NCBI RefSeq assembly: GCF_965152275.1
Contig: NW_027439781.1
Coordinates: forward strand, 1-39,704
DNA: 39,704 nucleotides
Direction of reading: 5' to 3'
Source: Natator depressus
Taxonomy: Eukaryota
Part shown: positions 13,030 through 35,896 of the stretch, piece after piece
Numbering within the stretch: the first letter of the stretch is position 1
Layout: each line of letters starts with the position of its first letter
The notes under the pieces: model-generated
What the model was told of the DNA's origin: nothing
Databases searched by the model: none
The model's input: only the letters and a program-made list of their open reading frames with translations
Position numbers and translations under genes: made by a program

Positions 13030-13500
13030 CCCTCCGCATCATTGGGCTAGTGCCTCTCACTCCCGACCCGCAGCCCCCTGCTAGCCCAGCCCTGCCCCCC
13101 CCAGCTGTGCCGGTGCCCCTCACTCCCGACCCGCAGTCCCCTGCTAGCCCAGCCCTCAGCCCCTCCAGCCCTGCCGGTGCCCCTCACTCCCGACCCACAG
13201 CCCCCTGCTAGCCCAGCCCTCAGCCCCTCCAGCCCTGCCGGTGCCCCTCATTCCCGACCCGCAGCCCCCTGCCAGCCCAGCCCTGCCCCCCCCTGCCCTG
13301 CCGGTGCCCCTCACTCCCGACCCGCAGCCCCCTGCTAGCCCAGCCCTGCCCCCCCCCAGCTGTGCCGGTGCCCCTCACTCCCGACCTGCAGCCCCCTGCT
13401 AGCCCAGCCCTGCCGGTGCCCCTCACTCCCGACCCACAGCCCCCTGCTAGCCCAGCCCTGCCCCCCAGCTCTGCTGGTGCCCCTCACTCCCGACCCACAG
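13030..13500. repeat. Dispersed minisatellite family, array A. Core ctgccggtgcccctcactcccgacccgcagccccctgc, unit about 60 bp, about 8 copies.
   Basis: Direct periodicity. The same core in reverse complement occurs at 13680-13920. Confidence 0.8.
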
Positions 13501-13679
13501 CCCCTGAATCCTTTGTCCCACTGCAGCATCCTGGGCTGCGGCTCTGGCATGGGGCCTAATCGGCTCACACTGGGCAGAGGCCTCTGTCAGCACAATTTGG
13601 CAGCGGGACTGCAGCATGGGGCGGCGGGGGGGGGGGTGCAGGTGGAGGGGCCGGGGGCCAAGCTTGGAAGGAGGGACAG

Positions 13680-13920
13680 GGCCTATGGCTGGGCTAGCAG
13701 GGGCTGCGGGTCGGGAGTGAGGGGCACCGGCAGAGCTGGGGGGGCAGGGCTGGGGTAGTAGGGGCTGCGGGTCGGGAGTGAGGGGCACCAGCAGAGCTGG
13801 GGGGCAGGGCTGGGCTGGCAGGGGCTGCGGGTCGGGAGTGAGGGGCACCAGCAGAGCTGGGGGGCAGGGCTGGGGTAGCAGGGGCTGCGGGTTGGGAGTG
13901 AGGGGCACCAGCAGAGCTGG
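13680..13920. repeat. Dispersed minisatellite family, array B (gggctgcgggtcgggagtgaggggcaccggcag...). It is inverted relative to array A and forms an imperfect palindrome with arms about 180 bp apart.
   Basis: Reverse complement of array A units. The + and - strand ORFs read the same [10 protein letters not shown] peptide. Confidence 0.8.
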
Positions 13921-14380
13921 GGGGTATCCTCGCTGTGGGTCATGGTTGTGGCTGCCCCATGGGCTGTGGGGGGTGGAGGCGCCTGGCTCGGCTCCGGGTG
14001 GAGGAGGCTGCGTTCCCTATGACCTTGCAGCAGCTGTTGCCCGTCAATACTCCATCGATCCTCCCAGTCCCTACCCACCAGGCCACACTGCCGCCACGCT
14101 CGCCAGCCTGCGCCCCATGGCCTGTCTCCCCCATCCCGGTGAGCAGGCCAGGGCAGGTTACCCCTGCCAGCCCCACCCTCTGCCTGAGGTGCTGCTGGAT
14201 CCCCCAGCCCAGCCCCCCACACAGCTCCCCCCAGGCCCTGGCACTGCAGAGCCCCTCCTCCTGGCAGCTTCCGCTGCCTTGTGTCCCACCCCTCTCCCCT
14301 AGCACCCCCAGCAGGGCCCCACTGCCCCCGCCAGCTTCCCCTGCCCCCGCGGCAGCTCTAACCCCTCTGTCTTCCCCCAG

Positions 14381-14600
14381 GCACTGGCTGACGAGCGCCT
14401 ACACGGAGTTTGCGGTGCCCTACTTCATCTACGACATCTACGCCATGTTCCTCTGCCACTGGCACAGGTACCGGGTGAAGGGGCACGAGGCTGCGGGGCC
14501 CCGCTCGCTGCGCACCGCCACCCGCGCCTTCCTGCGCAAGGAGTTCCTCATGGTGCTGCACCACCTCTGCATGGTGCTGGTGTGCTTCCCCGTCTCCGTG
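14381..14600 (+). CDS. TLCD3B: TLCD3B exon 4. (Q)HWLTSAYTEFAVPYFIYDIYAMFLCHWHRYRVKGHEAAGPRSLRTATRAFLRKEFLMVLHHLCMVLVCFPVSV.
   Basis: Strong match to human HWLSSAYTQFAVPYFIYDIYAMFLCHWHKHQVKGH...KEFLMVLHHAAMVLVCFPLSV. Acceptor cttcccccag|G, donor GTG|GTGAGTGGG. Confidence 0.9.
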
Positions 14601-15560
14601 GTGAGTGGGCCCCGATAGCCGCAGGGGGCTGCACCCCCTCTGCATGGTGCTGGTGTGCTTCCCCGTCTCCGTGGTGAGTGGCCCCCGATAGCCGCAGGGG
14701 GGCCCCCCGATAGCCGCAGGGGGCTGCACCCCCTCTGCATGGTGCTGGTGTGCTTCCCCGTCTCCGTGGTGAGTGGCCCCCGATAGCCGCAGGGGGCTGC
14801 ACCCCCTCTGCATGGTGCTGGTGTGCTTCCCCGTCTCCGTGGTGAGTGGCCCCCGATAGCCGCAGGGGGGCCCCCCGATAGCCGCAGGGGGCTGCACCCC
14901 CTCTGCATGGTGCTGGTGTGCTTCCCCGTCTCCGTGGTGAGTGGGCCCCGATAGCCGCAGGGGGCTGCACCCCCTCTGCATGGTGCTGGTGTGCTTCCCC
15001 GTCTCCGTGGTGAGTGGGCCCCGATAGCCGCAGGGGGGCCCCTGATAGCCGCAGGGGGCTGCACCCCCTCTGCATGGTGCTGGTGGGCTTCCCCCTCTCC
15101 GTGGTGAGTGGGGCCCGATAGCCGCAGGGGGGCCCCTGATAGCCGCAGGGGGCTGCACCCCCTCTGCATGGTGCTGGTGGGCTTCCCCCTCTCCGTGGTG
15201 AGTGGGCCCCGATAGCCGCAGGGGGGCCCCCCGATAGCCGCAGGGGGCTGCACCCCCTCTGCATGGTGCTGGTGTGCTTCCCCGTCTCCGTGGTGAGTGG
15301 GCCCCGATAGCCGCAGGGGGCTGCACCCCCTCTGCATGGTGCTGGTGTGCTTCCCCGTCTCCGTGGTGAGTGGGCCCCGATAGCCGCAGGGGGGCCCCTG
15401 ATAGCCGCAGGGGGCTGCACCCCCTCTGCATGGTGCTGGTGGGCTTCCCCCTCTCCGTGGTGAGTGGGGCCCGATAGCCGCAGGGGGGCCCCTGATAGCC
15501 GCAGGGGGCTGCACCCCCTCTGCATGGTGCTGGTGGGCTTCCCCCTCTCCATGGTGAGTG
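14601..15560 (+). repeat. About 11 tandem copies (73 bp, or 94 bp with an insert) of the 3' end of TLCD3B exon 4 plus its donor (ctctgcatggtgctggtgtgcttccccgtctccgtg|gtgagtgggccccgatagccgcagggggctgcaccc). They fill almost all of intron 4.
   Basis: Direct. Each copy keeps a GTGAGTGG donor and a ...ccgcag|g acceptor-like site. Confidence 0.9.
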
Positions 15561-15700
15561 GGGCCCGAGATCCCCAGGAGGCCGTAAGAAGGCAAGGGGT
15601 GGGACCGAGCCACAGGAGGGAAGTGGGGGTCCTGAGCCCATGAGGGGGCAGGAGGGGGCTAGTTCCCACCAGCTGCCCCTCACCCCCCCTCTCTCCCCAG

Positions 15701-16075: not shown

Positions 16076-16384
16076 TACAAGCGGCAGCACACCCTGCTGC
16101 ACAAGGTGAACGGGCTGCTCATGCTGGTGACCTTCTTCTGCTGCCGCATCCTGCTCTTCCCCTACATGTACCGGGCCTACGGGCGCCACGCCGGGCTGCC
16201 CCTGCACCGCGTGCCCCTCGCCCTGCCGCCCGCCTACAACCTGGGCGCCGCCCTGCTCCTGGCCCCCCAGCTCTACTGGTTCGGCCTCATCTGCCGCGGG
16301 GCCGTCCGCCTCTTCCGCCGTGCCCCGCCCACGGACCCCGCCCTGCGCAACGGGCATGGCCCCGGGGGGCGGGCGCTGGACTGA
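16076..16384 (+). CDS. TLCD3B: TLCD3B last exon. [102 protein letters not shown] followed by a stop (TGA at 16382-16384).
   Basis: Matches human [80 protein letters not shown]. Acceptor ctctctcccccag|. Confidence 0.9.
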   Translation, partial: [102 protein letters not shown]

Positions 16385-16660
16385 GAACCCCCGGTGCCAG
16401 GGGCACGGCCTCTGGGGGCGGGCGCTGGACTGAGACCCCCCCAGTGCCACGGGCACCGCCCCCAGGCCGGGTGCTGGACTGAGACCCCCGCCCTGCGCCA
16501 CGGGCACGGCCCCGGGGGGCGGGCGCTGGACTGAGAACCCCCGGTGCCAGGGGCACGGCCTCTGGGGGCGGGTGCTGGACAGAGACCCCCCGGTGCCACG
16601 GGCACCGCCCCCGGGGGCGGGCGCTGAACAGAGACCCCCCCAGTGCCACGGGCACCACCC
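16330..16660 (+). repeat. About 6 tandem copies of a 60-bp unit (gccacgggcacggccccggggggcgggcgctggactgagaacccccggt). They include the last 14 codons and stop of TLCD3B and extend into the 3'UTR.
   Basis: Direct. The first copy is coding, and later copies retain ctggactgaga. Confidence 0.8.
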
Positions 16661-16842
16661 CAGCCTACCTGCTCTGTGCTAAGGGCATATCCTCGGGGGG
16701 GCTCGCTGGCCTGAGCCCCCCTGCCCGTGTGGTGCCATGGGCACAGCCCCAAGGCCCTGGCATGAGACCGTCCCCGCGTGGTGGGCACGGGGTGAACTGA
16801 CATCTGGGGCCAGCGCCCAGAGCCTCAGCTTCTAACGACTTT

Positions 16843-16860
16843 ATTTATTTATTTATTGGG
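16843..16860 (-). terminator. (TTTA)n run. On the - strand it reads AATAAATAAATAAA and is a candidate poly(A) signal for the - strand gene ending at 17726.
   Basis: gactttatttatttatttatt on the + strand. Inference only. Confidence 0.3.
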
Positions 16861-17725
16861 GGCCCTCCCTGGAATTCTCCGGGGGCTGCTGCAGGAGGGA
16901 GTGGGGCCCCCCTTGGACTGACAGGGGCTGACTGCAACCCCCATTCTCAGGGGTCTGCCCAGTAGCACCTGGGGCGGTCCCCCTGGGTGGTGCAGCTCAG
17001 ACACCCCCAGTAATGGGGGAATGAGGTGCAAATCGGGGGGTTGGCTGTGTTGGGAGGCGAGGGTTTAGCCTGGAGATTTGGGGGACCCCTGGGAATCTCA
17101 GGGGGCCACCCAGGGGATTGAATTCCTGCCCCACCAGAGTGTGGGGGGACCCAGCCAGACTCCACCAGCAGACAGTTTGGGTGGACTTGGGGACCCCCCA
17201 CACTGCCCCCCACTGTAGCAATAACCAGGCAGCGGGTGGGGAACTGACCCCCCCAACAAGGACTGTGAGCTCTGCACCCCCCAGCTGCTCGCTGGGTCAG
17301 GATGTATACGGGGGGGGGATTTCCAACCCTGGGGGCTGCAAAGTATTAAAGGAGCCTTGATCCAATGCCAGTGCCGCTGCCTCCGGGTGATTATTACCCC
17401 CCACCCCCCAGACTGCCCCCCAGCCAGTGCCTCAGGGTGATTATGAACCCCCAGCCCCCCAAAACTGCCCCCCAGCCAGCACCTGCAGGGGACTGTTACT
17501 GCCCCCCCCCCCGGGTGCCAGGCACTGGGGATGCCAAGACAATGCAGCTCTTTACTGGGGGGGGCAAAGCTGAACCCTGACATCCTGCAGCTCCTCAGCT
17601 CTGCGTCCTGCAGACCCTAAGAGAGAACAAGGGGGGGGTCACTGCCAGCCTCCCGGCAGCACTGGGGCGGGGGGGGTTGGAGAGGACCAGGCCAGGGAAT
17701 AGGACCCAGGCGTCCGGGGAGACAC

Positions 17726-17817
17726 CTACAGTGTGCTGCAGATCTGGTAGAGGAGGAAGAGCAGGGTCAGCAGGACGGAACCAAGCAGGATGCGGTGCAG
17801 GACTCGGGGCAGGGGAT
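17726..17817 (-). CDS. Small transmembrane protein gene X, last exon. (N)PLPRVLHRILLGSVLLTLLFLLYQICSTL followed by a stop (TAG at 17728-17726).
   Basis: Acceptor ccccccaccag|AT. Phase fits exon 2. Hydrophobic C-terminal transmembrane segment. Confidence 0.5.
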
Positions 17818-17959
17818 CTGGTGGGGGGCAAAAAGGCCAACGTGGGGACAAAGTGGGAGTGCACCCCCCCAAGCCTCCGCCCTGGGGCCAAAGCTTATGG
17901 ACATCGAGTGTGACCCCCCGTCCCCTCCGAAACTACTGCTGGGGCAGAGCTTGGGGGAG

Positions 17960-18300
17960 CCCAGGGCTGGGCTAGCAGGGGCTGCAGGTCGGGAGTGAGG
18001 GGCACCGGCAGGGCTGGGGGCGCAGGGGCTGCGGGTCGGGAGTGAGGGGCACCGGCAGGGCTGGGGGCGCAGGGGCTGCGGGTCGGGAGTGAGGGGCACC
18101 GGCAGGGCTGGGGGGGCAGGGGCTGCGGGTCGGGAGTGAGGGGCACCGGCAGGGCTGGGGGCGCAGGGGCTGCGGGTCGGGAGTGAGGGGCACCGGCAGG
18201 GCTGGGGGGGCAGGGGCTGCGGGTCGGGAGTGAGGGGCACCGGCAGGGCTGGGGGCGCAGGGGCTGCGGGTCGGGAGTGAGGGGCACCGGCAGGGCTGGG
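17960..18300. repeat. Dispersed minisatellite family, array C (gggctgcgggtcgggagtgaggggcaccggcagggctgggggcgcag, 47 bp, about 7 copies), in the intron of gene X.
   Basis: Direct periodicity. Same core as 13680-13920. Confidence 0.85.
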
Positions 18301-18412
18301 CTGGGCTAGCAGGGGGCTGCGGGTCCGGAGCCGGGCGGGAGGTAGCCTGGAGCTGGGGGCAGGACTGAGGGGCACTGTCTGTCTGGGGATCCCTGCCCCC
18401 CCATCCCCTCAC

Positions 18413-18538
18413 TGGCTGCGAAGAACACGGGCTTCTCCCCGATGTAGCGGTAGGTCGCCAGGATCTTGGCTCGGTCGTCGTCGGGATAATCGAACCAGAG
18501 CGGCCCCGGCGCCTGCCACGTCCCTCCCCTCGGCGTCG
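18413..18538 (-). CDS. Gene X exon 2. (A)TPRGGTWQAPGPLWFDYPDDDRAKILATYRYIGEKPVFFAA.
   Basis: Acceptor ttcttggcactgcag|CG. Donor GCAGCCA|GTGAGG. Phase 1 in and out. It is not one of the 60-aa-or-longer ORFs in the track because it is a short exon. Confidence 0.5.
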
Positions 18539-18639
18539 CTGCAGTGCCAAGAAACCAGAGCAGGGAGCCGGCTACGGGGGAAGACGCTCTGGTACGTCAA
18601 GGCCAGGACTCTACTGCTCCGCAACAGGACAGCTGAGCT

Positions 18640-18960
18640 TCGACTTGGTGCTGGCTAAGGGGCCGTGCCACACGATGTCGGGACACAGCAGGCGGCGCTG
18701 GTGACGGGGGGTTCAGCCCGGGGGAGCCGTTTTGGGGGGTCACCCAGCAGGCGGAGCTGGTGACGGGGGGTTCAGCCCGGGGGAGCCGTTTTGGGGGGTC
18801 ACCCAGCAGGCAGAGCTGGTGATGGGGGGTTCAGCCCGGGGTAGCCGTTTGGGGGGGTTGCCCAGCAGGCGGTGCTGGTGACGGGGGGTTCGGGACAGGG
18901 GAGCCGTTTGGGGGGGGGCAGCGCCCAGCAGGCGGTGCTGGTGACGGGGGGTTCGGGACA
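18640..18960. repeat. About 5 tandem copies of a 60-bp unit (caggcggagctggtgacggggggttcagcccgggggagccgttttggggggtcacccagcagg) in intron 1 of gene X.
   Basis: Direct periodicity. Confidence 0.8.
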
Positions 18961-19013
18961 GGGGAGCCGTTTGCGGGGGGCTTGGCCAGCAGTGCTCGGG
19001 GCCTGGCCCTCAC

Positions 19014-19110
19014 CTGTCCCCTGGTCGGTGCTGTTAGGGGAGAGTGGTCTGGCGCTGAGGGTCGTCACCAGCACCCACAGCAGGAGCCATTCTGGAGCCC
19101 AGTGCCCCAT
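19014..19110 (-). CDS. Gene X exon 1. ATG at 19110-19108. MGHWAPEWLLLWVLVTTLSARPLSPNSTDQGT plus one base. Signal-peptide-like.
   Basis: The hydrophobic N-terminus looks like a signal peptide. Donor GGGACAG|GTGAGGGCC. The three exons together give a 104-aa protein with a signal peptide and a C-terminal transmembrane segment. The position, convergent with TLCD3B, suggests C16orf92/FIMP. That is an inference only. Confidence 0.45.
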
Positions 19111-19245
19111 AACTACCTCCAGTTGGGGCGGAGCTCTACCTGGCCACACCCCCTTGGAGTGTGACATCACAATGCCCACAGAGGTCAGGTATGTGCACAC
19201 AGCCCCACCCCCAATGAGCCACGACCCGCCACGTTGGCTGCCACT

Positions 19246-19251
19246 TTTATT
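19246..19251 (-). terminator. MVP: MVP poly(A) signal AATAAA on the - strand (+ strand ttttattg), about 70 bp after the stop.
   Basis: Direct motif at the expected distance downstream of the stop at 19321-19319. Confidence 0.5.
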
Positions 19252-19318
19252 GCAGAGAATAAGGCACACGCTGGGCCGGACAATGGGGTCCCGTTTCCAT
19301 GGGGGAGGGGCGGGGCCC

Positions 19319-19450
19319 TCACTCGTGGTGCCCCGGGGAGGGCCTGGGCAGGACACCCAGCAGCCCCCCAGCCGTGGAGAAGAGGTTGATGGGGGAGGAG
19401 CCGTCGGTGATGAGGGCCGACTGGAGGCCCAGGCCCTGCAGCAGCTTCAC
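19319..19450 (-). CDS. MVP: MVP last coding exon. [43 protein letters not shown] followed by a stop.
   Basis: Matches human [33 protein letters not shown]. Acceptor ctgctccccccag|GTG. Confidence 0.9.
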
Positions 19451-19722
19451 CTGGGGGGAGCAGGGGGGTGGGTGAGTGAGTGGGACCCAGTCCCCAGCCC
19501 CTCCCCCACCCGTGTAAGCTCCACCCGTCCTGGGCCCCACCCGCAGAACCCACCAGCCCCTACTCCACCCACTCCAGCCCTACAGCCAGCTCCGCCCCCC
19601 AGCCCTAGCGCCACCTATGCCAGCACCAGTTTCCTCAGGTCCTGCCCCTAAGCCCCTCCCCCACATGCTCACCCAAGCCTAGCCCCGCCCCACCCTCCTC
19701 TAAGCCCCGCCCCCCGACCCAC

Positions 19723-22539: not shown

Positions 22540-22930
22540 TCGGGATCCCGGTGCCCCTCACTCCCGACCCGCAGCCCCCTGCCCCCCCCGCCGGTGCCCC
22601 TCACTCCCGACCCGCAGCCCCCTGCCCCCCCTGCCGGTGCCCCTCACTCCCCACCCGCAGCCCCCTGCCCCTCCTGCCGGTGCCCCTCACTCCCCACCCA
22701 CAGCCCCCTGCCCCCCCTGCCGGTGCCCCTCACTCCCCACCCACAGCCCCCTGCCCCCCCTGCCGGTGCCCCTCACTCCCCACCCACAGCCCCCTGCCCG
22801 CCCTGTGCCCCTCACTCCCCACCCGCAGCCCCCTGCCTCCCCCGCTCTGCCGGTGCCCCTCACTCCCCACCCGCAGCCCCCTGCCTCCCCCGCTCTGCCG
22901 GTGCCCCTCACTCCCGACCCGCAGCCCCCC
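22540..22930. repeat. Dispersed minisatellite family, array D (ccggtgcccctcactcccgacccgcagccccctgcccccc, unit about 45-50 bp, about 8 copies), in an MVP intron.
   Basis: Direct periodicity. Same core as the arrays at 13030-13920 and 17960-18300. Confidence 0.85.
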
Positions 22931-22956
22931 GCCAGCCCAGCCCTGGACTCCCCCAC

Positions 22957-23159: not shown

Positions 23160-25300
23160 GTCTAGGTAATATGGTCATATCATTTACTGTGCATATAAAC
23201 TAGAAAATATGGCAAGATCATGCCTCAATGAATATTTTATTCCTTTTCCCACTTATTGCCAAAGAAACAAGGCAACACCTGCCCAGATAGTCTGAAAAAT
23301 ACAGTTAGACCCACCCGACTCCAAGGTGAGGAGCTGCTTTTTCTATTATTCTACGTGTAGCCTAGAAAATACAGTAACCGCTTGCCTATATTATAGGAAA
23401 TACGGTAACCCCCCTTCCACAATGGCCTGGTCAACCATCACCTTTAAAGTGGAAATACAGTAACATCTGCTCCTATACCCTGAGTAATATGGTACCCCCG
23501 TGCCGCCCCCAGCTGTAGCTGCTCCTATGACCTGGCAACAGACACTTCCCCCACCCATCTATAACTGCAGCTATAATCTGGTATATACGGTAGAAAATAA
23601 AGAAACAAAGACAGTAACAGAAGGCCACTAGCCGTCACCTTCAGCCCCCAACTCAAACCTCTCCAGCACACCATGGAGGATCTACAACCGATCCTGAGGG
23701 GCGACCCCTCGCTCTCACAGATCTTGGGAGACAGGCCAGTCCTTGCCTACAGACAGCCCCCCAACCTGAAGCAAATACTCACCAGCAACCACATACCACA
23801 CAACAGAACCACTAACCCAGGAACCTATCCTTGCAACAAAGCCCGTTGCCAACTGTGTCCACATATCTATTCAGGGGACACCATCACAGGGCCTAATACC
23901 ATCAGCCACACTATCAGAGACTCGTTCACCTGCACATCCACCAGTGTGATCTATGCCATCATGGGCCAGCAATGCCCCTCGGCCATGTACATTGGTCAAA
24001 CTGGACAGTCTCCACGTAAAAGAATAAATGGACACAAATCAGACGTCAAGAATTATAACATTCATAAGCCAGTCGGAGAACACTTCAATCTCTCTGGTCA
24101 CGCGATTACAGACCTAAAAGTGGCTATTCTTCAACAAAAAAACTTCAAAAACAGACTCCAGCAAGAGACTGCTGAATTGGAATTTATTTGCAAACTGGAT
24201 ACAATTAACTTAGGCTTGAATAGAGACTGGGAGTGGATGGGTCATTACACAAAGTAAAACTATTTCCCCATGTTTATCCCCCTCCCCTCACTGTTCCTCA
24301 GACGTTCTTGTCAACTGCTGGAAATGGCCCACCTTGATTATCACGACAAAAGGTTTCTTTCTCTGCTGCTGGTGATAGCTCACCTCACCTGATCACTCTC
24401 CTTACAGTCTGTGTGGTCACACCCCTTGTTTCATGTTCTCTGTGTATATAAAATCTCCCCACTCTATTTTCCACTGAACGTGTCCGATGAAGTGAGCTGT
24501 AGCTCACAAAAGCTCATGGTCAAATAAATGGGTTAGTCTCCAAGGTGCCACAAGTCCTCCTGTTCTTTTTGCGAATACAGACTAACACGGCTGCTACTCT
24601 GAAGCCTGTATATACGGTAGCCAACTCCTAGGTTAACCATACCAGTCTATCCACATCTGTCTCTTTATTTCTACTAATTATGGTAGACAGCCATTCTGGG
24701 CCCCATTCAGCTACCGTACTTACTAGGATACAGGAGGCTACAACAAAGAGGTAATTAGAAGGGTAACTATGAAATACCATAGAGGCACATCATTACCATA
24801 ATTACTAGCATAAATGTGCCCCACAGCTATATCCAGAGCTACTGTAATGTCAGATAAACAAAACTACCGTATATGCTAGAATAAACTTGTACAAACAATA
24901 TTTGGTTACCCTATGTACTAGGATAAACATGCCCCTACAAGATATAGTTACCATATATAATGGTGTAAATACACCCAATGAGATACACATCATTACCATA
25001 GTTACTGACACAAGCCCCTCCCCAACATAAAATGGACTAGCATAAATATTCCTCACATACAGTTGTACTATATTCACTAGAATATAAGTGACCCTTCAAT
25101 CTAAAGTGCCATGGTACTTAGTAGAATACATATGCCCCACAGCACTACCGCATTTAGTGGAATAAATGCGCCCCGGGAGCTATGCAGCCTTACCAGAGGC
25201 AGGGGAACAAAGCCTTCCCTGAACACAGACACAGTACTACGGGTGCTACCGTATTCCCTAAAGCAAAGGTGGCCCCGGAGTTTACACTAGTACCATATTG
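23160..25300. mobile_element. AT-rich interspersed-repeat block in an MVP intron. It contains a Penelope-like element (PLE) fragment: a GIY-YIG endonuclease ORF at 23673-24257, flanked by inverted arrays of a degenerate 50-60-bp unit. The left array carries aatacggtaacc-type motifs and the right array carries gttaccgtat-type motifs.
   Basis: The ORF has a CCHH-like zinc finger (CNKARCQLCPH) followed by a GIY-YIG motif (SVIYAIMGQQCPSAMYIGQTGQSPRKRINGHKSD...KPVGEHF). Coupling of reverse transcriptase with a GIY-YIG endonuclease defines PLEs, which is established knowledge. The reverse-transcriptase part is absent here, so the element is 5'-truncated. Confidence 0.55.
23673..24257 (+). pseudogene. 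5'-truncated PLE ORF encoding the C-terminal GIY-YIG endonuclease domain only. It is unlikely to be functional on its own.
   Basis: 194-aa ORF from the track. The motifs are given in the mobile-element feature above. Confidence 0.5.
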
Positions 25301-26239: not shown

Positions 26240-26680
26240 CAGATCAGGAGTGAGGGGGACCGGCAGAGCTGGGGGGACAGGCCCAGGGCTGGGGGGGCTG
26301 CGGGTCGGGAGTGAGGGGCACCGGCGGAGCTGCGGGGGGGGGGGCAGGGCTGGGCTAGCAGGGGCTGTAGGTCGGGAGCGAGGGGCACCGGCAGAGCGGA
26401 CGGGGGGACGGGCCCAGGGCGGTGGGGCGGGAGCGAGGGGCGCCGGCAGACCGGATGGGGGGACGGGCCCAGGGTGGCGGGGCGGGAGCGAGGGGCGCCG
26501 GCAGAGCGGACGGGGGGACGGGCCCAGGGCGGGAGCGAGGGGCGCCGGCAGAGCGGACGGGGGGACGGGCCCAGGGCTGGGGGGCGGGAGCGAGGGGCGC
26601 TGGCAGAGCGGACGGGGGGACAGGCCCAGGGCTGGGGGGCGGGAGCGAGGGGCACCGGCAGAGCGGACGGGGGGCGGTAC
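26240..26680. repeat. Dispersed minisatellite family, array E. This is a diverged variant (cgggagcgaggggcgccggcagagcggacggggggacgggcccagggc, unit about 60 bp) whose first units are the canonical gggctgcgggtcgggagtgaggggcaccggc. It lies in an MVP intron.
   Basis: Direct periodicity. Confidence 0.8.
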
Positions 26681-30460: not shown

Positions 30461-30783
30461 CGCCTTCCGCACCTTGTCGCTCCCGCGTCGCTGGGTGCGT
30501 GCGCGGCGCCCCACCCGGCGGGCGCCCTGATTGGCCGGTGTCTGGACAGGGGCGGGGTTAGCGCCAAATACAAACGGCCGCGGGCCGCGCGAGCTGCAGC
30601 GGCCGCCGGACCGGAGAGAGAGCAGGGGCTCGGTGGGCGCGAGGGGCCGGACGGCGGGGAAGGGAGTGGGGGGGCCCGAGGGGGCGGGGCTGAGAGCAGC
30701 TTGTGGGGCGGGTCCCCCGGTCGGGGCAGCAGGTTCCCCCCCACAGCCCGGGCGGGGCGCCCCCTCCCCCCGCGGCGGGCACC

Positions 30784-30938
30784 ATGCCGCCCCAGCAGCG
30801 AGCCGGCCCCCCGGCCCGGGTGCGCGTGTGCGTCCGCCTGCGGCCCTGCAGCCAGGGGGACCCCTGCGTCCGCGGCCTGGACTCCCGCTCCCTGCAGATC
30901 GTCAGCTGGAGGAACAGGAAGGAGACCATGGAGTACCA
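30784..30938 (+). CDS. KIF22: KIF22 exon 1. ATG at 30784, Kozak caccATGc. [51 protein letters not shown](Q).
   Basis: Matches human ...PPPARVRVAVRLRPFVDGT...[26 protein letters not shown]. Donor TACCA|GTAAGT. Confidence 0.85.
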
Positions 30939-31020
30939 GTAAGTGGGGGGGCCCCTGTGCTGAGACACCCCCCCCCCCGACATCACAGCCCTTCCCCCAC
31001 CCCCCTGCTCTGTCCCCCAG

Positions 31021-31149
31021 GTTCGACACCTTCTATGGGGACCAAGCCACCCCAGCATGACGTCTACGCCGGCTCCGTGCAGCCTGTCCTGCGCCACCTG
31101 CTGGAGGGGCAGAACGCCAGCGTGCTGGCCTACGGGCCCACCGGTGCTG
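31021..31149 (+). CDS. KIF22: KIF22 exon 2. (Q)[42 protein letters not shown](G). It contains an apparent 1-bp insertion (gccaCCCCag) that shifts the frame.
   Basis: Matches human [43 protein letters not shown]. The FDTFYG and QHDVYAG segments are in different frames. The exon is 129 nt where frame continuity needs 128. Confidence 0.8.
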
Positions 31150-31230
31150 GTGAGCACGGGGGCGGCCGGGCTGATCCCGGGGAAGGGGGCTGTGGAAGCC
31201 GAGGAACTGATTTCTTGCCTCCCACCCCAG

Positions 31231-31391
31231 GTAAGACGCACACCATGCTGGGCAGCCCAGAACAGCCAGGTGTGATCCCACGGGCGCTGCGGGATGTCCT
31301 GCAGATGACGCGGGAGGCGAGCTGCTCACCCAGGGGTGAGGAGTGGGACTACTCAGTCTCCATGTCGTACCTGGAGATCTACCAGGAGAAG
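31231..31391 (+). CDS. KIF22: KIF22 exon 3. (G)[53 protein letters not shown]. It ends with a GC donor (AAG|GCAAGT).
   Basis: Matches human [31 protein letters not shown]...[11 protein letters not shown]. Acceptor cccaccccag|GT. No GT donor gives the required phase. Confidence 0.85.
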
Positions 31392-32542
31392 GCAAGTATG
31401 GGGGTGGGGTGAGGACAGTACTGGGGGGAAGAACTGTCCAGCCAGCTGCTGGACCCACTGTTGCAGATCCACAGGATGGGTACTAAGACCCCAGCTTTGG
31501 AGCAGTCTCTGGGAGGCCCTCTTCATTGAGCCAGACTCCCAAGGGGTTCCACTCTTCCTCCAGGGGAAGCCACGGGCCTCACCACCTCCTTAGGCCGGAG
31601 GAGCCTGCAGCCCCCCCACTTCCCACGGAGAGCTCTGATCAGTGAGTCCCATTGAGACCCCAGGGGAGACTTGTACAATCTCCGGCAGTATCTGCAGGGC
31701 CACGCTGCCAGTGCTGGCAACAACAGGTTCATTAGCTGGCTGGACAGTGTGGCAAATCCTTGGTTAGCCAGGGAAGGAAGTTACAGCCCAGCCCATCCTG
31801 GTCAGCCCAAGCCCTGTGCCTCTGACCTCCTGTTGGCCCGGTTCAGGTGTGTCCCCAAAGCCCGCAGAAGCCAACCTTTAACCAGCAGCCCCCCCCGGGT
31901 CCTGCGTTCTCCACCTGGGCGAATGCTGCTCGGTCCCTGAGGAGAGGTGGGTTGGCCATGGTCCTGGTCGCTAGGTATCAAAGCCCAGGTGACAGGGATT
32001 GCCATTGTCGTCTTATAAACCCCACTGATGGGACCTAAGGCTCCAGGCAGCTTGGAGACATTCACAGCTGTAGGTTTGCCTACCCTGGGAGCTGACAGAC
32101 CTTCTCCCCATTGCGTGATGGTGCAGCATAGAGGGGAAACTGTGACACACAGGCTTCATCAAAATATGACACAAAATTCCCACTTTATCCCACCTACCAG
32201 TCTGAGTGGGGTTGGCAGGTGTATGTGGGAGTGAACCAGGAGGGAGATGGGCTAGTAGGCTCTTGCTGATCTGAGATGGGCTGATGGGGGATTCCCTCTT
32301 GGTCGGGGGTGGGGAGAGAGAAACTGAGACACCAGGGGACAGGTGGGTGATGCATGTGGAGAAGTGCACTGGCTGGGGCTGGTGAGATGATGGGGTGGGG
32401 AGAATCTTGGCAGTCCAGGATAAGGGTGGGAGGGTGCTGGGAGCCCTGCCTGACTGGGATGGGGGGGGCAGGGGTGGGGCTGCTGGGAACACTGGTAGGG
32501 GGCAGAGCAGGATCCTTCCTCTGATAATCCCTCCAACTCCAG

Positions 32543-32983
32543 GTGCTGGACCTGCTGGAGCCATCCCAGCAGGACCTGCCGATCCGGGAGGACCGGGACC
32601 GGAACATCCTGATCCCGGGGCTGACTGAGCGAGAGCTGGGAGGCTTCGGGGACTTCGAGCGGTACTTCCTGCCAGCTAGCCGCAACCGCACTGTAGCCTC
32701 CACTCAGCTCAACGACCGCTCAAGCCGCAGCCACGCCGTGCTGCTGGTGCGGGTGGCGCGGACCCAGCAGGCGCCCCCCCACCGCCGCCGCACGGCCAAG
32801 CTCTGCCTCATTGACCTGGCTGGCTCTGAGGACAACCGGCGCACTGGCAACCGTGGCCTGCGGCTCAAAGAGAGCGGTGCCATCAATGCCTCCCTGCACG
32901 TGCTCAGCAAGGTGGTGGATGCCCTCAACCAGGGGCTGCCCCGTGTGCCATACCGCGACAGCAAGCTCACCCGCCTGCTGCAG
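32543..32983 (+). CDS. KIF22: KIF22 exon 4 (motor domain). [147 protein letters not shown].
   Basis: Matches human [71 protein letters not shown]...[62 protein letters not shown]. Sites ctccag| and CAG|GTGCGC. Confidence 0.95.
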
Positions 32984-33412
32984 GTGCGCTGGCCGCCGGG
33001 ATCCTCCCCTGGAATAGGGGTGGGGCTGGGGCCAGAGGCTGCAGGGGAGGAATGCACGCTGGGGTCCTATCCTGGGGCAGGGGTGCACACACCAGGACTC
33101 TGCCCTGACACTGCTCCCGCCTGGTATTCTCCAGCAACGGAGCAGGGAGCTCTTGGGCATCAGAGGCTCAGTATCAAAGTCGAACTGGGTCGGGACATGG
33201 GGCCTGGCGCGCAGAGAGCCGAGGGGGACAAAAACCAAATACCGGGGAAGGGGTAGCACCAGATGCACAGTCCCCTGCCCTGCCCAGCTTTGCCAGCGTG
33301 AGGGGACTGGTGCAGGAATCCTGGGTTCTCTCTCAGCTCTGGGAGGGGACTGGGAGCTGGTGGTTAGAGCAGGGGCAGGTGCAGGACTCCTGGGTTCTCT
33401 CTCTCTCCCCAG

Positions 33413-33566
33413 GACTCCCTGGGGGGCTCAGCTCACAGTGTGATCATTGCGAATGTCGCCCCCGAGCAACACTTCTATTTTGACACGCTGAGCACGCTGA
33501 ACTTTGCTGCCAAGTCCAAGCAGGTGGTGAACCGGCCCTTCACCCAGGAGACACTGCAGGCCCCAG
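33413..33566 (+). CDS. KIF22: KIF22 exon 5. [51 protein letters not shown]. Its acceptor lies inside a MIR-like SINE fragment.
   Basis: Matches human [50 protein letters not shown]. Sites ctgggttctctctctctccccag| and CCAG|GTAAGG. Confidence 0.9.
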
Positions 33567-33674
33567 GTAAGGCTGGGCCAGGCCAGGCTGCCCTGTCCAT
33601 GGGGCTAAGGGATCAATGGGGGGGGTGACCCCAGGGGCTGTGCCCAGCCTGGCCTCACCCTTCTCTTCCCACAG

Positions 33675-33774
33675 CTGCACGCAAGAGACCTCATGAGGAT
33701 CCTGGAGCCAGCAGTGCCAGCCCAGGGGCCAAGAGTCCTCACAAGGAGGAACCCCCCGAGGCCAAGCCGCTCAG
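33675..33774 (+). CDS. KIF22: KIF22 exon 6. (A)ARKRPHEDPGASSASPGAKSPHKEEPPEAKPL(S).
   Basis: Sites ttctcttcccacag| and CTCAG|GTGAGG. The phase links exons 5 and 7. This is the low-complexity linker region of Kid. Confidence 0.75.
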
Positions 33775-33860
33775 GTGAGGGGTGGGAGCCCTGGGGAGGG
33801 GGTGTGCAGGGGAGCATGGTGGGAGTTGCTGGGCTAATGGTCAGTCTCCTCTCCCCCAAG

Positions 33861-34035
33861 CTCCCTGCTGCCCCTGGAGCAGCTGGACCCAAGGCTGGTG
33901 CAGCGGCTGCTGGGCCTGGAGCAGCTGGAGAAGCAGCAGGGGGGTGCCGGGCAGAGGCTGCCGCTGCTCAGCACCCCCCGGCGAGAGCGGGTGGCCCTGC
34001 TGCGCCAGCTGGAGGAGACACGCAGCGAGCTGCAG
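33861..34035 (+). CDS. KIF22: KIF22 exon 7. (S)SLLPLEQLDPRLVQRLLGLEQLEKQQGGAGQRLPLLSTPRRERVALLRQLEETRSELQ.
   Basis: Matches human [53 protein letters not shown]. Sites ctcccccaag| and CAG|GTGGGT. Confidence 0.8.
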
Positions 34036-34344
34036 GTGGGTGAGCCCCACATCCATGTGCTGCTCCCCGGGGACCCCCAGAGCCCCGCCTGGCTCCTTGA
34101 GGACTCCCGCATGGCTCCCTGTACCCTTACACCTGACCCTGGGGACCCCTGCATGGTTCCCCTGCACTCTCTAGCCCCACCCAGCTCCTGGGGAACCTCC
34201 ACCCCGTAACCTGTTCCCATAGACAGCCCCATAACCCTTCTCCCATTGCTTCCCTGGTTCCCTCCAGCCCCAAACCCCCTTGTGCCCAGCTGGCCTGTGA
34301 CTGGCCCCAGTGTGCCCTCCCCACTGACCTGGCCTCCCCTACAG

Positions 34345-34477
34345 AAGCTGAAGGAGAGGCAGAAGGAGCTAGAAGCTGTGGCACTGCTGGACAACGCCTG
34401 TCAGCCCAAGCCCCTGCACAACAGCAAAGCCCCCCCCAGGGCCCGCAAACAGGCTGTGGTGCTGCCCCTGCAGCAAG
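34345..34477 (+). CDS. KIF22: KIF22 exon 8. KLKERQKELEAVALLDNACQPKPLHNSKAPPRARKQAVVLPLQQ(G).
   Basis: Matches human KTKQKELEAKMLAQ...[22 protein letters not shown]. Sites cccctacag| and CAAG|GTAAGG. Confidence 0.8.
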
Positions 34478-34539
34478 GTAAGGGGGCTCAGGGCCCCAAC
34501 CCTGGCCTCATCGAACTGCTAGACAGCCCTCTTGTAGAG

Positions 34540-34845
34540 CGAAACCCGGGTGTCCTGGCTCCCAGTGCCCCCCTGCTCTAACCACTGGACCCCACTCCCC
34601 TTCCAGAGCTGGGATGGAACCCGGGTGTCCTGGCTCCCAGTGCCCCCCTGCTCTAACCACTGGACCCCACTCCCCTCCCAGAGCCGGGATGGAACCCGGG
34701 TGTCCTGGCTCCCAGTGCCCCCCCTGCTCTAACCACTGGACCCCACTCCCCTCCCAGAGCCGGGATGGAACCCGGGTGTCCTGGCTCCCAGTGCCCCCCC
34801 TGCTCTAACCACTGGACCCCACTCCCCTTCCAGAGCTGGGATGGA
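34540..34845 (-). repeat. Four tandem copies of a 65-bp unit derived from the MIR-like SINE head (- orientation: ggagtggggtccagtggttagagcaggggggcactgggagccaggacacccgggttc) in KIF22 intron 8.
   Basis: Direct periodicity. The unit is homologous to the SINE heads at 12690-12810 and 33290-33400. Confidence 0.8.
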
Positions 34846-34895
34846 ACCGGGTGTCCTGGCTCCTAGCCCCCCTAACCCTGCCCCCTGCTCTGCAG

Positions 34896-34966
34896 TGCAC
34901 ACCCCCCTTGGGAAGCAGGCCACACCCAGTGGAGATGAAGGGGTCCTGGTCATACAGAGGAAGCAG
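34896..34966 (+). CDS. KIF22: KIF22 exon 9. (V)HTPLGKQATPSGDEGVLVIQRKQ.
   Basis: Sites ccccctgctctgcag| and CAG|GTGAGA. The phase links exons 8 and 10. Confidence 0.7.
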
Positions 34967-35205
34967 GTGAGAGGGGCTGTGCACAGGGTATCTTGGAGGT
35001 GCATTGCTGAGGGCGGCACAAGTGTTGGGGGGCAGTTGAGAGGGCTGGGGCAGTAGGGGGTGGAAACGGGCAGGGTGGGGTGAATGGGGTGAATGGGAGA
35101 GACAGTTGTGCTGTCTTGGGGGGCAGAGTTGGGGGGTGGATTGCTGTGCTGGGGGGCCCCCTGGTAGTGGAAGGTCACTGCCCCCAGCCCATGTCTCCCT
35201 CCCAG

Positions 35206-35412
35206 GGCCAGGCCGATGGGCTGGGGGCTGAGAACCAGGCTCCACCCTGGGAGCTGATGCTGCGCCCTGACCTGCTGGCCCGGAGCCGGGAGAACCTGGT
35301 GGTGCTGCTCAACCAGGGCAGTGCCAAGGAGCTGCGCGCCCTGCACCGCATCGGGGACAAGAAAGCCCAGCTCATCATGGCCTGGAGACAGCTCCACGGG
35401 CCCTTCACCCAG
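35206..35412 (+). CDS. KIF22: KIF22 exon 10. [69 protein letters not shown].
   Basis: Matches human ...[54 protein letters not shown]. Sites ccatgtctccctcccag| and CAG|GTACCT. Confidence 0.9.
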
Positions 35413-35497
35413 GTACCTGCGGGGGGGGCCGGGGGTGAGGCGGGGTCCGCAGTGGGGGGCAAGGGACATGGCCAGTCACTCTGCCCCTCTCTCGCAG

Positions 35498-35557
35498 GTG
35501 GAGGACCTTCAGAAGGTGGAGGGGATGACAGCCAAACAAGTGGCCTCTTTTCTGAAA
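35498..35557 (+). CDS. KIF22: KIF22 exon 11. [20 protein letters not shown].
   Basis: Matches human [20 protein letters not shown]. Sites ctctctcgcag| and AAA|GTGAGT. Confidence 0.9.
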
Positions 35558-35896
35558 GTGAGTGGGGGGGGTTATGGCCTGGGGCAGGGGGGAGGCACTG
35601 ATGGGGGCTGGGCCCTGTGTCAGTGTCGGGGCCATCGTGGGATGGACAAGGGGTGAGGGACAGGGCTGGGGGTGCAGGAGCATGGAGTGCAGGGGGTGGG
35701 GGAAGCAGGGACTGGGGCATGGGGGGAAGCTGTGTGGGTGGTTAGGGACATGGGGGGGAAGCTGTGGGGGGCAGGGTGAAGTGGGGGGCAGGGGTGTGGG
35801 GCTGGTTAGGGGCAGGGGGCAGGGTGAAGTGGGGGAGGCTCGGCTTGGGGGGAAGCTGGGGGGGTCCCACTGCTCTAACTCGCTGCTCTCCCCCAG

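Follow-up and report, generated by a model that had tools for sequence, protein, structure and literature searches.

The window analysed here is a stretch of 39,704 nucleotides (nt) from the flatback sea turtle Natator depressus (assembly GCF_965152275.1, contig NW_027439781.1, positions 1 to 39,704 of the forward strand). Between MVP and the convergent TLCD3B, it contains a compact protein-coding gene on the minus strand, which we identify with a probability of about 0.9 as the flatback orthologue of FIMP (C16orf92). A preliminary description of the locus, made from the DNA letters alone, had proposed here a three-exon gene for a protein of 104 amino acids and suggested that it is FIMP. Splicing and translation of the minus-strand segments 19110-19014, 18538-18413 and 17817-17726 (315 nt) indeed give a protein of 104 amino acids followed by TAG, with GT..AG boundaries at both introns, so that exons 1 to 3 and the reading frame stand exactly as they had been written. 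A conserved exon 4 had been overlooked; the gene most likely has four exons and a product of 110 amino acids is more likely, the TAG stop of the shorter reading overlapping a splice donor. The elements of the gene model are as follows.

19014 to 19110, minus strand: FIMP exon 1, coding part; ATG at 19110-19108; ends in phase 1 before GTGAGG.
18539 to 19013, minus strand: FIMP intron 1, 475 nt, GT..AG; holds a minisatellite of 59 base pairs (bp).
18413 to 18538, minus strand: FIMP exon 2, 126 nt; ectodomain core PLWFDYPDDDRAKILATYRYIGEKPVFF.
17818 to 18412, minus strand: FIMP intron 2, 595 nt, GT..AG; holds a 47-bp minisatellite.
17730 to 17817, minus strand: FIMP exon 3, 88 nt if spliced at CT/GTAGGT; juxtamembrane residues and the transmembrane segment ILLGSVLLTLLFLLYQICS (17791-17735).
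17617 to 17729, minus strand: proposed FIMP intron 3, 113 nt; donor GTAGGT, acceptor ...TTCTCTCTTAG (AG at 17618-17617).
17530 to 17616, minus strand: proposed FIMP exon 4, coding at 17616-17595, then 3' untranslated region (UTR); 3' end approximate.

Introns 1 and 2 both start with the donor GTGAGG, and their acceptors are ...CTGCAG and the pyrimidine-rich ...CCACCAG, i.e. ...TTTTTGCCCCCCACCAG. Tandem Repeats Finder recovers the minisatellite that had been reported in each of these introns, at 18686-18980 in intron 1 (period 59, 4.9 copies, 89% matches) and at 17962-18300 in intron 2 (period 47, 7.2 copies, 97% matches).

The comparison with FIMP orthologues that the preliminary description had named as a check was positive. 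The 104-amino-acid protein matches the Pfam family FIMP (PF17672, Fertilisation-influencing membrane protein) with 57.9 bits (E 1.4e-15), the curated gathering cutoff being 25 bits, and BLASTP aligns it to the human FIMP isoform 1 precursor (NP_001103129.1, 110 amino acids) at 38% identity (E 3e-22). In a large protein search, three relatives were found, namely a 110-amino-acid protein of Lepidochelys olivacea (91%), the RefSeq FIMP of Malaclemys terrapin (77%) and FIMP of Lepidochelys kempii, and the suggested identity is borne out by its nearest relatives, turtle proteins that RefSeq names FIMP. Human and mouse FIMP are built like the turtle protein, with a signal peptide, an ectodomain, a single transmembrane segment and a tail of six residues, and they have in common with it the core (F/W)-F-D-Y-P-D-x-D...I-G-E-K-P. 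Human FIMP and the four-exon turtle form are equal in length although only 38% identical, and mouse Fimp (4930451I11Rik) has 111 amino acids.

FIMP is usually listed among the 'mammalian' fusion factors. A turtle profile built from two sequences only (P0001 and P0002), without the protein of the window, was compared with 1.84 billion representative proteins. As a result, 43 proteins matched at E<=1e-3, and 16 of these were looked up (12 named). Those named FIMP or 'C16orf92 homolog' come from primates, pig, marsupials, platypus, lizards (Sceloporus, Podarcis, Zootoca and Varanus), snakes (Pantherophis, Crotalus and Laticauda), a caecilian and a frog. An uncharacterised coelacanth protein, LOC106705789, also matches the profile (E 3.5e-5). 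The FIMP family is widespread in tetrapods and its reptile members are already annotated, RefSeq having given the name FIMP to the orthologue in other turtles, lizards and snakes. The original description presented FIMP as mammalian (PMC7196805), and published PSI-BLAST surveys place it outside mammals (PMC9482655, PMC13192804). The finding is therefore correct but ordinary, since public databases and the literature already contain the gene, its family and its occurrence in turtles; its practical value is small and it opens no new question.

The same 104 residues are also on deposit as CAM5072691.1, 'unnamed protein product, partial [Natator depressus]', a gene model of the same locus that differs in being unnamed and partial and in lacking the exon-4 tail; the 110-amino-acid Natator sequence had no exact match in the protein collection searched. 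Other turtle FIMP models are 77 to 94% identical and alike in exon layout, those in RefSeq being XP_053881009.1 of Malaclemys, XP_042703815.1 of Chrysemys, XP_074985145.1 of Caretta and XP_073202444.1 of L. kempii. The turtle models disagree in their extent: there are forms of 102 amino acids with three exons and of 110 amino acids with four exons, an intron-retaining one of 226 amino acids, and one of 139 amino acids that starts in the 3' UTR of MVP.

The ends of these models can be understood from the sequence around exon 3. The TAG stop of the 104-amino-acid reading (17728-17726) sits within the splice donor CT/GTAGGT, where it occupies positions 2-4 of the proposed intron 3, and this donor is kept in all three turtles of our locus alignment (Natator, L. 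olivacea and Malaclemys). A phase-2 intron that starts with GTRA or GTAG reads TRA or TAG as its next codon, so that a stop just past the junction is automatic and the TAG is no argument for the short form. We likewise rejected a special regulatory role for this stop within the donor of exon 3, as any retained phase-2 GTRA/GTAG intron gives an immediate stop.

Beyond the proposed intron 3, the 22-nt coding piece of exon 4 (G GTC TGC AGG ACG CAG AGC TGA, 17616-17595) encodes the tail VCRTQS, giving a four-exon product of 110 amino acids with the C-terminus ...CSTLVCRTQS. In the 3' UTR of exon 4, a poly(A) signal AGTAAA lies at 17556-17551; its counterpart in Malaclemys is AATAAA. Conservation in the three turtles extends to the exon-3 donor, the exon-4 acceptor, the frame of the tail, the TGA stop and the poly(A) signal; donor and acceptor are kept in both L. 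olivacea and Malaclemys, and the intron body has 65 gapped positions in the latter. With the tail, the Pfam alignment ends at profile position 127 instead of 122 (profile length 130) and the score is 59.9 bits (E 3.3e-16) for the 110-amino-acid form, versus 57.9 bits for the shorter one. The tail after the membrane segment has six residues in 10 of the 12 aligned sequences, eight in one lizard and none in the 102-amino-acid Malaclemys model, and the deposited 110-amino-acid models of Caretta (CAM4569635.1), L. olivacea (CAM4566601.1) and L. kempii (CAM4678247.1) carry the equivalent tail VCRMQS. Mouse Fimp has four exons, of which exon 3 (88 bp) encodes the transmembrane segment (PMC7196805), and turtle exon 3 spliced at CT/GTAGGT would have the same length of 88 nt. 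This conservation suggests that the four-exon, 110-amino-acid form is probably the main product, while the 104-amino-acid form is the reading with intron 3 retained. The disagreement among the turtle models (102, 104, 110, 139 and 226 amino acids) is then explained by a short-form stop that is the start of intron 3, and the unnamed, partial Natator protein gains both the name FIMP and a likely complete four-exon model. If exon 3 were skipped, the frame would yield a 95-amino-acid protein without the membrane segment, as in the mouse secreted isoform; for turtle FIMP, such skipping is hypothetical.

At the protein level, Kyte-Doolittle analysis gives a hydrophobic, signal-peptide-like segment at residues 8-20 and a transmembrane segment at residues 84-102. 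In the alignment, they coincide with the signal region and the transmembrane region of the human FIMP precursor. The two hydrophobic segments and the human length of 110 amino acids agree with the single-pass type I protein of FIMP-like size that had been claimed for the locus. An N-glycosylation sequon, N26-S-T (residues 26-28; 19035-19027), lies in exon 1.

Exon 2 contains the sequence that aligns with the known binding site for TMEM95. A 2026 cryo-electron microscopy study of the human TMEM95-FIMP pair describes a loop of FIMP residues 62-75 from which F69, D70 and Y71 hydrogen-bond to TMEM95 K67, W90 and R70, and a helix after it whose residues V82, F85 and I86 pack on TMEM95; F68A, F69A or Y71A abolishes TMEM95 binding (PMC13192804). 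Since a sequence search of our PDB copy found no solved FIMP structure, we took the interface residues from the text of the preprint. Turtle W47-F48-D49-Y50 (18497-18486, exon 2) align with human F68-F69-D70-Y71, and human V82, F85 and I86 correspond to turtle T61, Y64 and I65. F48, Y50, D52, I65, G66, E67 and G87 are invariant in the alignment of 12 species and D49 is nearly so. The motif defined in 2026 in human FIMP is thus retained in sea turtles, which fits the surveys that place the family outside mammals (PMC9482655, PMC13192804).

Moreover, the region before the FIMP start codon is conserved. Two elements lie there.

19111 to 19185, minus strand: conserved block before the ATG in the three-turtle alignment; candidate core promoter or 5' UTR.
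19246 to 19251, minus strand: AATAAA poly(A) signal of MVP; the FIMP ATG follows about 135 nt downstream.

The approximately 75 nt upstream of the ATG are 95.6% identical to L. olivacea and 87.0% to Malaclemys. This block contains TGATGTCA, a motif resembling the cAMP response element (CRE), at 19169-19162 (invariant in the three turtles), and a GC box CCGCCCC at 19131-19125; the conserved CRE-like motif is only suggestive of testis (spermatid) expression. The MVP poly(A) signal lies where it had been reported, and its distance from the ATG (about 135 nt) is close to the 130 bp given earlier. From this spacing, an overlap of the FIMP promoter with the MVP 3' end is plausible. It is made more so by the conserved block before the ATG and by the L. 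kempii RefSeq model XP_073202444.1, which begins METGPHCPGPACALLSAIKVAANVAGRGSLG and translates the MVP 3' UTR across its AATAAA, so that transcript and MVP 3' end overlap in at least one automated model. The N-terminal extension of that L. kempii model (METGPHCPGP...) was considered as a conserved coding exon and rejected, being closed in the Natator sequence by a 1-bp frame-shifting difference.

Several observations qualify or weigh against a working, four-exon FIMP gene at this locus. Between the three turtles, the Nei-Gojobori ratio of non-synonymous to synonymous substitution (dN/dS) ranges from 0.7 to 1.4. With just 3 to 12.5 synonymous changes behind it, it gives no sign of purifying selection and was counted for neither side, and constraint may be relaxed. 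Position 47 of the TMEM95-binding motif is W and not F, and human V82 and F85 are T61 and Y64 in the turtle. In a homologue search with human TMEM95 (an exact match to PDB 7UX0 over residues 17-138) as query, the best 120 of 201 matches are all mammalian, and TMEM95 in turtles is thus putative. A conserved in-frame ATG at 19167-19165, within TGATGTCA and 19 codons upstream, has an open frame in the three turtles and would add 19 residues if the transcript starts before it. Finally, the RefSeq models of Malaclemys and Chrysemys stop at the 102-amino-acid, three-exon form. On the other side, fast evolution is usual for reproductive proteins, and constraint on residues 43-107 is shown by their conservation over long distances, between turtle and human, frog or caecilian. 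The F-to-W change at position 47 is conservative and common to other sauropsids, a caecilian and platypus, and TMEM95 has been traced back to amphibians in the literature (PMC9482655). In the upstream 19-codon stretch, most of the changes from one species to another are non-synonymous, and this speaks against its being coding.

A dN/dS of about 1 among turtles would also be expected of a decaying or non-coding remnant, a long non-coding RNA or MVP read-through whose open reading frame (ORF) survives only through recent divergence, and the L. kempii RefSeq model that begins inside the MVP 3' UTR fits such a remnant as well. We consider this very unlikely. Natator, Caretta, two Lepidochelys species, Malaclemys and Chrysemys all have an intact frame, every splice site is intact, and none of the residues common to all the aligned tetrapods has been lost. 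In the three-turtle alignment, the FIMP introns carry dozens to hundreds of gapped positions, whereas exons 2, 3 and 4 have no insertions or deletions and exon 1 has one in-frame 6-nt difference; compared with L. olivacea, exon 1 (91.8% identity) and exon 2 (97.6%) are both free of insertions and deletions. An Rfam scan of 16300-19600 gave no match. A chance ORF with chance GT/AG dinucleotides is a further thought in GC-rich DNA (65.6% G+C), where many long spurious ORFs arise, as the ORF lists of the window show. It is already refuted by the Pfam match (E 1.4e-15), the orthologues, the BLASTP match to human FIMP (E 3e-22) and the kept synteny, and its probability is practically nil.

The more serious alternative concerns the form of the product and leaves the FIMP identity untouched: the three-exon, 104-amino-acid form might be the main or only product, with intron 3 kept and no cytoplasmic tail. 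The deposited Natator model has this same sequence, the RefSeq models of Malaclemys, Chrysemys and Caretta (XP_074985145.1) end ...STM, and the TAG is kept in all three turtles. However, the Natator model carries the 'partial' flag, and the TAG belongs to a good donor, GTAGGT, and would be conserved regardless. Beyond it, conservation includes the acceptor, the 22-nt coding piece with its stop codon and the poly(A) signal. The six-residue tail has the length found in most tetrapod orthologues and raises both Pfam coverage and score, and mouse has four exons with an exon 3 of 88 bp. We therefore regard the shorter form as an unlikely main product, though a far stronger candidate than a remnant.

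FIMP is a sperm membrane protein required for sperm–egg fusion in mice (PMC7196805), and its TMEM95 binding and role in sperm–egg fusion are known only for human and mouse (PMC7196805, PMC13192804). By analogy, the four-exon turtle gene would act as follows. In its main mRNA, exon 3 would end at 17730 (88 nt) and join the short exon 4 at 17616. The predicted product is a 110-amino-acid type I membrane protein with a signal-peptide-like segment, an ectodomain of about 60 residues that bears one N-glycosylation site and holds the W-F-D-Y loop and then a short helix, one transmembrane helix and the six-residue cytoplasmic tail VCRTQS. As in mammals, it would be made in spermatids and located in the acrosomal or equatorial sperm membrane (PMC7196805, PMC13192804, PMC13192892). 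Its aromatic W/F-F-D-Y loop may bind the conserved basic surface of TMEM95, as mammalian work suggests, and the FIMP–TMEM95 pair would act within the multi-protein sperm complex on which membrane fusion with the egg depends (PMC13192892). Turtle FIMP thus most likely has the function of its mammalian counterpart, as a sperm acrosomal-membrane partner of TMEM95 in a larger fusion complex, because the TMEM95-contact positions align and F48, Y50 and I65 are invariant in the 12 species.

A broader proposal joins three points, namely that FIMP is a working TMEM95 partner in turtle fertilisation, that it originated at the base of the lobe-finned vertebrates, and that in sauropsids its transcription starts at most about 115 bp from the MVP poly(A) site or results from MVP read-through. 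The match of coelacanth LOC106705789 to the turtle profile points to the possible origin at the lobe-finned base. If transcription did start near the MVP poly(A) site or by read-through, a sperm gene would be coupled to the 3' end of a housekeeping gene. Taken as a whole, this proposal is tentative, and we rather doubt that all three parts hold together.

The neighbouring genes agree with the location between MVP and TLCD3B, convergent with the latter, that the preliminary description had claimed. The coding exons of MVP span 27578 to 19319 on the minus strand (tblastn with human MVP as query; Pfam Vault and MVP_shoulder matches), with the stop codon TGA at 19321-19319. TLC-domain exons lie on the opposite strand, ending with the following one.

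16106 to 16384, plus strand: TLCD3B last coding exon, C-terminal part of the TLC domain (PF03798, 51.1 bits); start approximate.

A possible ATTAAA signal of TLCD3B is found at 17345. Both L. olivacea (OZ222860.1) and Malaclemys (CM051161.1) have the same order MVP(+), FIMP(+), TLCD3B(-), in which MVP lies upstream on the same strand and the downstream neighbour on the opposite strand is a called TRAM_LAG1_CLN8 gene. In human, C16orf92 is also convergent with TLCD3B/FAM57B. The upstream neighbour of turtle FIMP is MVP, unlike in human, where it is DOC2A, with nine genes (CDIPT to DOC2A) lying between MVP and C16orf92.

A protein of the snake FIMP cluster, Crotalus adamanteus KAK9397576.1 (P0047, 104 amino acids), is named 'major vault protein-like'; this name may stem from an MVP gene next to it, which would hint at MVP-FIMP adjacency in snakes. 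On the other side of MVP, kinesin-motor exons at 30531-35601 on the plus strand (Pfam PF00225, 148.9 and 70.9 bits) together with a C-terminal helix-hairpin-helix piece most likely represent KIF22. This putative KIF22 is head-to-head with MVP, about 3 kilobases (kb) from the first coding exon of MVP. The turtle order TLCD3B-FIMP-MVP-KIF22 differs from human 16p11.2, in which MAZ/PRRT2/PAGR1 lie between KIF22 and MVP.

The window is also rich in minisatellites. The repeat in FIMP intron 2 is a member of a dispersed family whose 28-nt core, GTGCCCCTCACTCCCGACCCGCAGCCCC, occurs 30 times in the window (<=3 mismatches; 0 expected by chance). Its five arrays, at 13050-13504, 13687-13924, 17962-18300, 22548-22933 and 26294-26388, have units of 43 to 64 bp in both orientations and lie within the TLCD3B region, the FIMP intron and MVP introns. 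In addition, a minisatellite at 14555-15568 on the plus strand has periods of 73, 95 and 168 bp (about 97% matches), and is also present in L. olivacea and Malaclemys. Its unit consists of the last approximately 50 nt of a TLCD3B coding exon (...LHHLCMVLVCFPVSV), a GTGAGT donor and about 22 nt of intron. The array thus holds about 12 copies of an exon–intron junction whose donor looks intact. At the end of TLCD3B, a 49-bp minisatellite at 16334-16655 on the plus strand (6.5 copies) runs from the last approximately 50 coding nt across the stop (16384) into the 3' UTR.

Finally, an ORF of 194 amino acids at 23673-24257 on the plus strand, in an MVP intron, has a GIY-YIG-like motif (...VIYAIMGQQCPSAMYIGQTG...), its score against Pfam GIY-YIG being 20.6 bits, below the cutoff of 22.6. 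This ORF is probably a remnant of a Penelope-like retroelement, and the surrounding 23.3-25.2 kb segment is richer in A+T than the remaining window.

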